Shown here piece by piece: positions 1 through 22,254 of a stretch of DNA of 33,744 nt. Both the position numbers and the translations under genes were made by a program. The stretch lies in the IMG/VR virus record IMGVR_UViG_2778261543_000005. One strand, written 5' to 3'. The stretch's first letter is position 1, and each line of letters begins with the position of its first letter. The stretch comes from a virus (lineage: Duplodnaviria; Heunggongvirae; Uroviricota; Caudoviricetes). The notes beneath the pieces are model-generated. The model saw only the letters and a program-made list of their open reading frames with translations, had not been told where the DNA came from and ran no database searches.

Positions 1-172
1 GACTATCACTTAAATAAGTGATATTGGTTGTCTGGAGATTCAGGGGGCCAGTCTATCCACGTATATGCGCTGCACCGCGCTGAATTCGGGTAAAAGGAAG
101 CCCTCACCGTCCGGCGATTATTGAGTCAATTACATTTCCATAAATGCCCCCGTAGGGGCGGTTAGTTTCTCC

Positions 173-261
173 ACAAAACAGAGAAGAACACCTGCGGTGG
201 CAGCCGCCCGGATGGATTGGGTTATGAGCCCGTCGTCCGGTGATGCTCTTCTCTGTTTTGT
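173..261. repeat. Long inverted repeat (15-bp perfect arms acaaaacagagaaga / tcttctctgttttgt) inside a GC-rich structured non-coding stretch
   Basis: Arms at 173-187 and 247-261 are exact reverse complements; the intervening sequence has further short stems (gcgg..ccgc, cccc gta gggg). No ORF here has a ribosome-binding site or recognisable domain. Confidence 0.5.
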
Positions 262-592
262 AAAAAGGACGGTACCAGCCGGAAGCAAGGGTACAAACTG
301 GTACCGCCAGGACTACACACAGCATAAAGTTGTGGTGCCGGGTGCCTCCCGGTGCCTGGCGAAGGTTGCACACCAGGCGGGTGGGTATCCACAGAAGGTC
401 GACTGTCAGCCTCAACCTTAACCCGCGTGCGCTGAGCCGCATTCACCACAACGCTAAGGATTCTCTCTGGTTGAAAATACTTAGCTGTTATGTGCCTGCT
501 TTTAGCCACATCAGGCGAGGTGGACCTAGTTATTCCCCAACAACAAGGATTCGGTTAATCTGGTTATCCCCAACAACGCAAAAGGAAAAGAA

Positions 593-1205: not shown

Positions 1206-1264
1206 TTCACACCTCCTCAAGTTATCAGTTACTTGTTGATGGGGACCAGATTGTTAAAGAGCTA

Positions 1265-1288
1265 AGCGTCCTGTAGGGCGCTTTTTTG
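1265..1288 (+). terminator. Intrinsic terminator-like hairpin (agcgtcc tgta gggcgct) followed by TTTTTT
   Basis: 7-bp stem with one G-U pair, then a T6 run on the plus strand. Confidence 0.4.
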
Positions 1289-1470
1289 TTGCTAACGAAT
1301 CATCCTGGACTTCATATGCCCCAGGCGGCTACTTCGTGGGTGTCCTGCCTGTTCGTTGTCATAACACCTTTAAGTTGTAATTTAGTTGTGGTTTTGAATA
1401 TTGTCAACAACTTTATGTGGTTTGAACGAGTAGCCAAGGAGTGCAAGGATTATCAAAAAAAGGAGGTTGT

Positions 1471-20774: not shown

Positions 20775-22254
20775 CACCATTCCGTCGAATACGCTGGTTC
20801 CGCTGTTTTATGCGGAAATGGATAACCAGGCGGCGAATACTGCACAGGACAGCGGAGCATCGCTGCTGATTGGTCATGCCAATAACGGTGCAGAGATTGT
20901 TGCCAACAGTCTGGTACTGATGCCGTCGGCAGACTATGCACGCCAGATTTGTGGTGCGGGAAGTCAGCTGGCGCGTATGGTCGAGGCTTATCGCCAGACC
21001 GACCCCTTTGGCGAGCTGTATGTGATTGCCGTTCCGGAAGCCACAGGCGCGGCGGCAACGGTTACGCTGACGGTGACCGGAGCAGCAACCGAAACCGGCA
21101 CGGTGAATGTTTATGTGGGACGTACCCGCGTGCAGGCACCGGTGACCAACGGCGATAACGTCACGACGATTGCCAGCAGTATCCAGGATGCCATCAATGC
21201 CGTTCCGGCCCTGCCGTTTACGGCCTCATCTTCGGCAGGCGTGGTCACACTGACCGCGCGTCATAAGGGGCTTTGCGGGAATGAAATTCCTGTCAGCCTC
21301 AATTACTACGGCTTTGGTGGGGGCGAAGTGCTGCCAGCGGGCGTACAGATTGCTGTGGCGACGGGTACCGCCGGAACGGGCGCTCCTGTTCTCACCGGTG
21401 CGGTGGCTGCAATGGCGGATGAGCCGTTTGATTATATCGGTCTGCCGTTCAACGACACGGCCTCCGTTAACACGCTGGTGACCGAGATGAACGATACCAG
21501 CGGTCGCTGGAGCTATGCGCGTCAGCTGTATGGTCATGTGTATACGGCAAAGACCGGCACGCTGTCAGAACTGGTGACCGCAGGTGACCAGTTTAACCAG
21601 CAGCACATTACCCTGGCTGGGTACGAAAAAGAAACCCAGACACCTGCCGACGAGCTGGCGGCAAGCCGTACCGCCCGCGCAGCGGTGTTTATCCGCAACG
21701 ATCCGGCACGTCCCACGCAGACCGGTGAGCTGGTGGGTATGCTGCCTGCGCCGAAGGGGAAACGGTTCACGATGACCGAGCAGCAGACCCTGCTGTCTCA
21801 TGGCGTGGCAACGGCGTATGTCGAAAGCGGGGTGCTGCGCATTCAGCGTGATGTCACCACGTACAGGAAAAACGCTTACGGGGTTGCGGATAACAGCTAC
21901 CTCGACAGCGAGACGCTGCATACCAGCGCGTATGTGCTGCGCAAACTGAAATCCGTCATTACCAGTAAGTACGGGCGTCACAAGCTTGCCAGCGACGGTA
22001 CCCGCTTTGGTCCCGGTCAGGCGATTGTCACCCCGGCGGTGATCAAAGGGGAACTGCTGGCAACCTACCGTCAGCTTGAGCGTGCGGGGATCGTGGAAAA
22101 CTACGAACTTTTTAAGCAGTACCTGGTTGTGGAGCGTGATGCCAGCGATCCGAACCGCCTGAACACGCTGTTCCCGCCTGACTATGTTAACCAGTTGCGT
22201 GTCTTTGCCGTGGTTAACCAGTTCCGTCTTCAGTATTCAGAGGAGTCCGCATAA
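20758..22254 (+). CDS. Contractile tail sheath protein
   Basis: 498 aa; followed by the tube gene with overlapping stop/start. Confidence 0.85.
   Translation: MTISFNTIPSNTLVPLFYAEMDNQAANTAQDSGASLLIGHANNGAEIVANSLVLMPSADYARQICGAGSQLARMVEAYRQTDPFGELYVIAVPEATGAAATVTLTVTGAATETGTVNVYVGRTRVQAPVTNGDNVTTIASSIQDAINAVPALPFTASSSAGVVTLTARHKGLCGNEIPVSLNYYGFGGGEVLPAGVQIAVATGTAGTGAPVLTGAVAAMADEPFDYIGLPFNDTASVNTLVTEMNDTSGRWSYARQLYGHVYTAKTGTLSELVTAGDQFNQQHITLAGYEKETQTPADELAASRTARAAVFIRNDPARPTQTGELVGMLPAPKGKRFTMTEQQTLLSHGVATAYVESGVLRIQRDVTTYRKNAYGVADNSYLDSETLHTSAYVLRKLKSVITSKYGRHKLASDGTRFGPGQAIVTPAVIKGELLATYRQLERAGIVENYELFKQYLVVERDASDPNRLNTLFPPDYVNQLRVFAVVNQFRLQYSEESA

Follow-up and report, generated by a model that had tools for sequence, protein, structure and literature searches.

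A probable minus-strand small-RNA cassette, counterpart of the dicF region of Qin, in the early-left operon of a lambdoid prophage

The window analyzed here is a stretch of 33,744 nucleotides from a virus of the Caudoviricetes (IMG/VR record IMGVR_UViG_2778261543_000005), and this report concerns its left edge, in particular positions 100-500. The GC content is 0.58 at 151-450 and 0.36-0.42 at 451-1200, in agreement with a preliminary description of this DNA, which had called the stretch GC-rich and unlike the sequence that follows. In prophages 100% identical to the window, the leftward gene order is a LexA-type repressor (ymfK), a small leftward gene, an opposite-strand gene of the ECs1072 family, the stretch in question, yfdR, two small genes, xis, int, and a tRNA gene; in intact relatives, the order reads cI, pL, cassette, yfdR, xis, int, and tRNA-Thr. 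A strong leftward promoter-like site (TTGACA, 17 nt, TAAATT) is found at 1407-1379, and this site together with the gene order makes the stretch the leader of the distal early-left genes. Our analysis indicates that the minus strand of 145-485 is probably the small-RNA (sRNA) cassette that belongs to the early-left operon in a lambdoid prophage of the SfII/SfV/e14 type and that corresponds to the dicF region in the Qin prophage. The features are listed below, with the modules of the cassette named M1 to M4 and with related loci given by L numbers here and throughout.

1-55, minus strand: the terminal 55 nt of an IS3-family (IS2-like) insertion sequence (IS); multi-copy, with a transposase nearby in L360 and with relatives matching only from 56.
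104-442, minus strand: a ymfH-type open reading frame (ORF) of 112 aa with an ATG start, judged non-coding from even codon-position substitutions, frame-breaking indels, and stops.
145-172, minus strand: M4, the motif GGAGAAACUAAC (172 to 161) and a small GC hairpin (160 to 145), which recurs 3' of M3.
173-261, minus strand: M3, a Y-shaped three-way junction that corresponds to the inverted repeat of the preliminary description; covariation in alignment A2 and a fold z of -7.3.
262-325, minus strand: M2, a DicF-like sRNA of 64 nt with an intrinsic terminator end; alignment with DicF, a sub-threshold Rfam DicF match, and a position as in Qin.
329-452, minus strand: the M1 core, a multi-helix RNA of the e14 subtype of the STnc100/PasD family; Rfam STnc100 match, covariation, and an exact 20-mer.
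453-485, minus strand: a 5' hairpin before helix P1, GCUAAGUAUUUUC...GAGAAUCCUUAGC; an inverted repeat, with a differing hairpin at the same place in ST64B and phiES15.

M1 as a whole spans 485-329 of the minus strand. The Rfam scan suggested in the preliminary description was informative in part: nothing in the whole window reached a gathering threshold, but a sub-threshold match to STnc100 (RF02076) was found on the minus strand at 482-260 (43.1 bits, E 2.9e-7), covering the full model from 1 to 206. The match has the features of the family, with P1 (452-444 paired with 337-329), then GGUGAAU, and the P4 hairpin CCGGG-AGGCA-CCCGG abutting the 3' strand of P1. The P4 hairpin and the start of the P1 3' strand together make up an invariant 20-mer, ACCGGGAGGCACCCGGCACC, at 353-334, which is identical in STnc100/PasD and occurs exactly in more than 240 loci in Enterobacterales genomes and viral contigs, often in tandem. 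The multi-branch architecture, the prophage location, and the terminator that follows are also shared. Since the minimum-free-energy (MFE) fold of the 381-nt region fails to recover P1, the structure of M1 was taken from covariation. In an alignment of 20 e14-type sequences (A1), 96.3% of the cells in P1, P2, P4, and a small hairpin are paired, compared to 33-49% with the partners slid; double-change cells number 31, P1 and P2 covary, and none of 500 shuffles equaled the covariation score. The presence of G.U pairs fixes the RNA strand. M1 is thus a sub-threshold, covariation-supported member of the STnc100/PasD family.

Members of this family have one of two 5' types, the canonical GGUGAAUCCCCCUnnGCGGnGGGGC or the e14 type GGUGAAUGCGGCU(C)AGCGCACGCGGG, and the window copy is of the e14 type; its first hairpin is GCGGCUCAGCGCAC instead of the canonical CCCCCUGUGCGGAGGGG. 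Many canonical copies have a sigma-70 promoter positioned for a start at P1, whereas the window copy has no promoter of its own there and instead bears the 5' hairpin at 485-453. A terminator is located 25-150 nt (mostly 25-80 nt) past P1 in 129 of 210 family copies. The window copy also differs from STnc100 in that it lies in a pL operon leader and not downstream of Q and stx beside nanS-p, and in that its 3' module is DicF-like. Eleven copies of the STnc100 family are transcribed in EDL933 with low ribosome coverage, one of them Northern verified (PMC5331693), and the PasD RNAs, which are STnc100 relatives in prophages of EPEC and EHEC found by Hfq RIL-seq, are Hfq-bound sRNAs (bioRxiv 10.64898/2026.05.13.724894). 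Two arrangements of the family were observed in passing. Tandem canonical STnc100 arrays of two or three copies are present in L045 (three copies with a spacing of about 257 nt), L044, L062, L086, and L136, that is, in Superficieibacter, Citrobacter braakii, and viral contigs, and each copy examined in L045 and L062 has its own promoter and terminator. The P1-like phage SJ46 (L004 3001-3130), and also P1, P7, and RCS47, carry an e14-type STnc100-like element between upl and tciA, among phage tRNA genes; in SJ46, the element lacks a terminator and directly adjoins the ribosome-binding site of tciA, with an M3 loop remnant, GGGGUCAUAUCCCAAUC, just upstream.

M2 follows M1, with a linker and terminator of the form AUGCUGUGUGUAGUCCUGGCGGUACCAG...CUGGUACCGUCCUUUUU. 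It consists of a single-stranded 5' part, AUGCUGUGUGUAGUCC, a stem, GGCGGUACCAG/CUGGUACCGUC (306-298 with 278-270), and a tail, UCCUUUUU, with a U-run at 266-262; the stem and tail constitute an intrinsic terminator. Compared with K-12 DicF, an RNA that inhibits cell division, 46 of the 56 aligned bases are identical (82%; z 6.5), which none of 500 shuffles matched, and the e14 and L266 variants of M2 score even better than the window copy. M2 shares UGGCGGUAYCAGUUU with DicF, including the terminator stem GGCGGUAYCAG...CCGCC and the U-run. With the Rfam DicF model (RF00039), the window scored 15.7 bits (E 0.15) and the relative L332 29.6 bits (E 1.7e-4), while genuine DicF scored 76.7 bits. 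The hairpin loop of M2 is longer than that of DicF and differs in sequence, and therefore the ftsZ-complementary stretch is probably not kept. Judged by this alignment, M2 is a DicF homologue.

The arrangement around DicF in Qin is also similar. The order in the Qin locus (L358) is ydfC, an element of about 130 nt closed by GGUUGUGGC...GCUGCAAC, DicF, an STnc100-like element, and the dicB start codon, where the STnc100-like element is of the e14 type, is located 12 nt past DicF (38.8 bits, E 6e-7), and has a closing stem of about 16 bp. Both loci are early-left operons of lambdoid prophages, and both consist of a long-stem element, an sRNA with a GGCGG...CCGCC-UUUUU terminator, a second long-stem element, and then genes; long-stem elements thus flank the sRNA on both sides in the window and L001 as they do in L358. 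In the window, M1 is upstream and M3 downstream of the DicF-like RNA, and the element after the sRNA is the Y-shaped M3 and not an STnc100-like RNA, while the genes downstream are yfdR-xis-int and not dicB. The processing of DicF is known: RNase E produces the 5' end of the 53-nt form, whose 3' end arises by termination, the 190-nt form starts at an RNase III cut 137 nt upstream, and the 72-nt form ends at an RNase III cut in read-through RNA (10.1101/2023.04.14.536235; PMC5069750). DicF accumulates as a discrete RNA and binds Hfq and mRNAs (PMC5069750). By our reading of the coordinates, both RNase III positions in Qin fall at the closing stems of the flanking structured elements. In the Qin dicF-dicB intergenic region (L358 1368-1727), the sub-threshold STnc100-like element at 1565-1705 forms the 5' untranslated region (UTR) of dicB, and the 137 nt by which the "190-nt DicF" is extended at its 5' end form a structured element with a P1-like closing stem; neither the STnc100-like 5' UTR nor the structured extension was found noted in the DicF literature searched.

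M3 contains the inverted repeat. The 15 nt ACAAAACAGAGAAGA at 173-187 have an exact reverse complement at 247-261, as the preliminary description had stated, and when 100-500 was shuffled 300 times, the longest perfect inverted repeat was 13 bp (mode 7) and none reached 15 bp. The repeat is prolonged to 25 nt at 84% complementarity, and as RNA with G.U pairs allowed, it becomes the 20-bp closing stem of M3 (261-242 with 192-173). Inside this stem are an arm, CCGGA-CGAC-GGGCUCAUAACCC-AAUCCA-UCCGG, which is closed by 240-236/212-208 and has the tip GGG-CUCAUAA-CCC at 231-219, and a hairpin, c, at 207-194, which is variable in sequence and length but always present. The segment GACGGGCUCAUAACCCAAUCC is almost invariant. 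M3 folds at -45.5 kcal/mol (z -7.3), and over the stretch as a whole, the fold of the minus strand (-168 kcal/mol, z -7.8) is by far the stronger one compared to that of the plus strand (-151 kcal/mol, z -3.4). In an alignment of 29 distinct homologues (A2), 95.5% of the cells are paired, versus 40-52% with slid partners, and there are 37 double-change cells at seven pairs, a score that none of 500 shuffles reached. The comparison of homologous loci, which the preliminary description had named as a check, therefore supports the folds of both M1 and M3. A U.G at pair 22:101 in 24 of the 29 sequences and a G.U at 6:117 in 10 of them are kept as pairs, which identifies M3 as an RNA of the minus strand. 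Searches of Rfam with M3 alone and with a class 2 relative (see below) gave chance-level matches only, none of them to tRNA, and no counterpart of M3 was found in Rfam and the literature searched.

The direct repeats of the preliminary description were found to exist, but each is one half of a hairpin: the GGTACC copies at 271 and 300 occupy opposite arms of the terminator stem 270-278/298-306, and the three copies of GGTGCC (334, 341, and 351) correspond, as reverse complements, to the GGCACC in CCAGGCACCGGGAGGCACCCGGCACCAC, which makes helices P3, P4, and P1 of the STnc100-like RNA.

The surroundings of M3 vary between phages. A T-run lies 20-75 nt upstream in 118 of 134 copies and is, in the examples listed, the terminator U-tract just before the stem. 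The structured element upstream of that terminator can be of the exact 20-mer type, the mEp460 type, the "CAAUCCGCGAAAUGGCGCGG" type as in Qin, or a short type, or it can be missing. On the 3' side, most copies of class 1, to which the window copy belongs, are followed by an M4-type motif and hairpin; dozens of phage loci have GUGGAGAAAC(U/C)AAC and a hairpin directly 3' of the Y-shaped element, with differing hairpin sequences. Class 2, found in Klebsiella phages, is a 70-nt homologue located 6 nt past tRNA-Arg (after tRNA-Asn), downstream of Q, and its 6-bp stem GGCCUG/CAGGCC is followed by ACCA or GCCA. Class 3 has GGCCUC/GAGGCC or GGGCUC/GAGCCC followed by GCC. All three classes have the same Y-shaped fold.

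What is established here is which strand the RNA corresponds to, that the stretch does not code for protein, how M1 and M3 fold, that M1 is homologous to STnc100 and M2 to DicF, and that the locus is syntenic with dicF of Qin. The structured non-coding RNA that the preliminary description had offered as one possibility is thus supported: three stacked modules, all of them of the minus strand (a point that had been left unspecified), covary and have homology to known sRNA families. The way in which the cassette would work can be outlined from these relationships. Transcription would enter from the leftward pL-like promoter at 1407-1379, and the transcript would fold first into M1, a multi-helix RNA of about 125 nt whose fold is backed by covariation. 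Termination at M2 would give an RNA of about 200 nt, and a cut by RNase E in the linker may release an RNA of about 60 nt, the size of DicF, just as the 190-nt and 53-nt forms of DicF come about in Qin. Polymerases that read through would make M3, and its 20-bp stem right after the U-run is the likeliest RNase III site, because the 3' end of the 72-nt DicF in Qin maps into the long closing stem of the next element. Cleavage there would trim the sRNA and free the downstream yfdR-xis-int message. The released DicF-like RNA would then base pair with host mRNAs in trans in an Hfq-dependent manner, and because its loop differs from the ftsZ-complementary loop of DicF, its targets need not be those of DicF.

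Several observations weigh against this reading. The window copy of M1 does not reach the STnc100 gathering score (43.1 versus 47 bits), a shortfall due to its different first hairpin, and the DicF score of 15.7 is far below the gathering score of 48. A scan for a sigma-70 promoter of the window M1's own found none, and only a weak GAGAAT could be seen by eye. Between pL and the cassette lie a gene of 69 aa and the opposite-strand gene, so that transcription must cover about 900 nt, partly antisense; in favor of the reading, annotation and sequence reading place no same-strand gene in this interval in ST64B and mEp460. Complementarity to the ribosome-binding region of ftsZ, scored by eye, is 8/11 for the window and 9/11 for DicF, and the relative L266 has a perfect AGUUUCUCUCC, but in a duplex-energy test against the ftsZ leader, even DicF was not separated from shuffles. 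A simple RNase III-site model gives no purpose to the invariant loop of M3, GCUCAUAACCCAAUC, which points to a second, sequence-specific role of this loop; when its complement, GGATTGGGTTATGAG, was sought in the window, the only matches were M3 itself and two chance-level matches with three mismatches. Finally, expression, the RNA ends, the RNase III and RNase E cuts, and Hfq binding are what we infer for the cassette by analogy.

Other explanations of the stretch have to be considered, and two of them make no use of RNA. The perfect 15-bp palindromic arms lie beside an IS insertion in the integrase-proximal half of the prophage, where a site acting at the level of DNA could be expected, be it a cruciform, an operator, an origin, an attachment site, or a recombination site, the last of which the preliminary description had also suggested. 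We regard this as very improbable. Among the pairs that maintain the helix are G.U and U.G, whose counterparts on the opposite strand would be A.C mismatches, and this strand specificity makes the structure one of RNA and not of DNA. Most relatives are mismatched at one position of the stem, and the arms vary in a compensatory way, which argues for selection on pairing and not on a protein-binding sequence. The attachment site and the integrase gene are about 2.6 kb further left in intact relatives, by tRNA-Thr, and the IS2 joint at 55/56 is away from the repeat. Nor is it at all probable that the stretch encodes a small protein, although the 112-aa ORF is annotated as ymfH in K-12 e14 and as SfII_35 in phage SfII and appears in many records as a hypothetical protein, and although a ymfH expression clone was reported to trigger the retron-Sen2 toxin RcaT (10.1101/2020.06.22.160242). 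Substitutions are spread evenly over the codon positions (18/18/16 compared with ST64B and 12/9/11 compared with e14), the indels among relatives are 1, 1, 22, 2, and 5 nt long and break the frame, and the ST64B counterpart has stop codons in all frames. PGAP calls the ORF frameshifted in the 100% identical prophage L001. The ORF also begins within a covarying helix region and spans three RNA modules. None of the four overlapping ORFs in the stretch matched a Pfam or NCBIfam family or showed a coding signature, so the preliminary description was right to regard them as frame noise. Its suggestion of a decayed gene remnant is not supported, since the only annotated gene here lacks a coding signature, whereas selection acts on the RNA structures. 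RNAs on the clone could just as well account for the retron effect: the K-12 e14 ymfH clone (L006 3989-4300) includes most of M1, the DicF-like RNA, and M3, and for this reason the trigger effect may be an RNA effect. In e14, mutations are found in the otherwise conserved P4 hairpin and in the M3 loop, which suggests that this copy of the cassette has decayed in a defective prophage.

The remaining two explanations accept the RNA and differ in what it does. The cassette could act only in cis, as a leader or attenuator controlling the passage of transcription from pL to yfdR-xis-int, possibly with processive antitermination of the HK022 put or rrn boxA kind and with the sRNAs as by-products. 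A promoter, a structured RNA, an intrinsic terminator, and genes follow each other in phages without a recognizable N gene, as the structured RNA between the early promoter and the first terminator does in HK022, and terminator-less members run into a ribosome-binding site and ATG (L019, L020, L059, L078, SJ46, and Qin dicB). Judged against the rrn boxA consensus, UGCUCUUUAACAA, the pL leader has a near-perfect rrn-type boxA, GCUCUUUAACAAU (1262 to 1250), after a hairpin, and a boxA-like UGCUCUUUC is found directly 5' of P1 in SJ46, L041, L089, and others. The window M1 has no adjoining boxA, however, and no sequence similarity to HK022 putL was found; the pL-nun region of HK022 was also read as a candidate match and rejected, having no sequence or structural resemblance to the cassette. 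Unlike put, the family also occurs in stand-alone units, with many canonical copies having a promoter with its start at P1 and a terminator, and STnc100, PasD, and DicF accumulate as discrete RNAs, of which DicF and PasD bind Hfq and mRNAs. Action solely in cis is therefore unlikely in our view. Rather doubtful as well, if slightly less so, and compatible with the sRNA cassette is the idea that M3, and perhaps M1, is a tRNA mimic without a D arm that presents the anticodon arm of initiator tRNA. The tip of M3, GGGCTCATAACCC (231-219, minus strand), is the anticodon stem-loop of the four-copy E. coli initiator tRNA-Met, and GGGCUCAUAACCC is nearly invariant over the 29 diverse copies while the surrounding stems vary. 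The class 2 homologues occupy the slot of the next tRNA, as in L249 (1543 to 1474, 6 nt past tRNA-Arg), where the acceptor-like stem is followed by ACCA or GCCA, and in the T arm's place they have a 6-bp hairpin that covaries; the changes in the class 3 acceptor-like stem are compensatory, with the GCC tail kept, and an element at the M1 position in L332 exceeds the Rfam tRNA gathering score (29.5 versus 29). On the other hand, M3 lacks a D arm, a T-loop sequence, and a cloverleaf. ARAGORN called no tRNA in the window or at any M3 copy or M1 variant, only the neighboring genuine tRNAs, and the Rfam tRNA model (RF00005) was silent on the window M3 and, up to E 10, on the class 2 copy. The 6-bp stem with NCC(A) is found in the class 2 and class 3 relatives only, whereas the window copy, of class 1, has a 20-bp stem followed by GGAGAAAC and no CCA and cannot be charged as it is. 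Class 3 also loses the three G-C pairs (GCGGCUCAUAACCC), so the conserved unit may be a loop of 13-15 nt and not a 7-nt anticodon loop. If the mimic exists, some phages, such as those of Klebsiella, could produce it at the end of a tRNA array as a tRNA-like molecule, about 70 nt long and with a CCA end, and in the SfV/e14 types it would be embedded behind the DicF-like RNA, a scheme we find no less doubtful. Its GGGCUCAUAACCC arm might then, with the same low probability, bind or decoy a factor that recognizes tRNA-fMet. Conceivable candidates are an anticodon nuclease such as VapC, for example one from a toxin-antitoxin defense system, MetRS, and the 30S P site. A mimic or decoy of this kind would be a new type of phage counter-defense or translation-control RNA.

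Three observations made along the way concern these alternatives. In the pL leader (1250-1283, minus strand), the hairpin at 1283 to 1264 is followed by AGCUCUUUAACAAU, the near-perfect boxA, which suggests NusB/NusE-type antitermination in a phage without a recognizable N gene, and this hairpin looks like a terminator when read on the plus strand. The class 2 RNA is unannotated in Klebsiella phage GZ7 (L249 1474-1543) and in L250, L260, L261, L277, L281, L287, L291, L300, and L318; it is a 70-nt tRNA-like RNA that forms the last unit of the tRNA array, without a D arm but with a CAU anticodon-like loop and an NCCA end. The RNA at the M1 position in L332 (4364-4488, minus strand), and also in L338, has normal D and T arms, an insertion of about 55 nt, and an acceptor stem (GUUGUGG/CCACAAC) equivalent to P1, and it is not called by ARAGORN. 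The L332/L338 RNA hints that STnc100-type elements are tRNA derived. In a wider reading, the STnc100, PasD, and DicF-flanking elements would all be tRNA-derived modules, with P1 as the equivalent of the acceptor stem and P4 as that of the T arm, and they would be processed out of phage operons by the tRNA and RNase III machinery.

Taken as an sRNA cassette, the stretch joins STnc100/PasD and DicF, sRNA families that have been studied separately, in one modular architecture with a known processing logic of RNase III stems, RNase E, and a terminator. M1 and M2 are divergent, sub-threshold members of known prophage sRNA families, and M3 is an undescribed RNA motif, conserved and covarying, with an initiator-tRNA-like arm and outside all Rfam families. 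Neither the link between the M1 and M2 families nor the reassignment of ymfH was found in the literature searched. Rereading the stretch as an RNA cassette corrects the annotation of a ymfH protein in K-12 e14, would give K-12 a second, unrecognized DicF-like RNA, and offers an RNA-based explanation for the triggering of the retron toxin by the "ymfH" clone.

A match to 100-500 is present in 3,051 of 5,426 complete E. coli genomes, 1,852 of which hold at least 80% of it, and the K-12 e14 copy, annotated as ymfH, is 90% identical. Relatives are also found in phages SfII, SfIV, SfV, mEp460, ST64B, and phiES15, in Stx2c phages, and in others. In the window itself, the left edge is not near an unseen prophage end, as had been supposed, but marks an IS2 insertion at 55/56. 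The sequence at 1-55 occurs in many copies, at 20,798 places in 4,686 E. coli genomes; in L360, a transposase of the IS3 family, with a programmed frameshift, begins 37 nt inside this end, and we take the element to be IS2 from its terminal sequence. The 100% identical prophages, which are integrated at tRNA-Thr beside proA, match the window from position 56 only, and yfdR starts 7 nt beyond. Judging from these intact relatives, the insertion 7 nt upstream of the yfdR start cuts the cassette off from yfdR, xis, and int.

Further features were noted between the cassette and the repressor gene. A block, CCACC..GCCUGA.GUGG..AAAAG.CAGGCAC, at 492-520 (also L006 4340-4390 and L003 3215-3260) is kept among phages with differing opposite-strand neighbors, namely, the ECs1072 family, ymfI, and an unannotated ORF in phiES15. 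A sigma-54 promoter was considered for this block and rejected, the spacing being one off; on the plus strand, it looks like a promoter of the opposite-strand gene (in e14, TTCACC, 16 nt, TATGCT). Roughly the first 60 nt of the leftward transcript (1290-1345, minus strand; L002 3440-3505) are conserved between the prophage and ST64B as GAACAGGCAGGACRCCCACGAAGUAGCCGCC...GAUGAUUCG, while the leaders differ further downstream. Between the repressor gene and the leftward promoter, an ORF of about 300 aa on the plus strand (1441-2361) has a C-terminal BRCT domain (Pfam E 1.3e-6). This ORF is missing from the otherwise identical prophage L001, which suggests that it is a moron, possibly related to defense.

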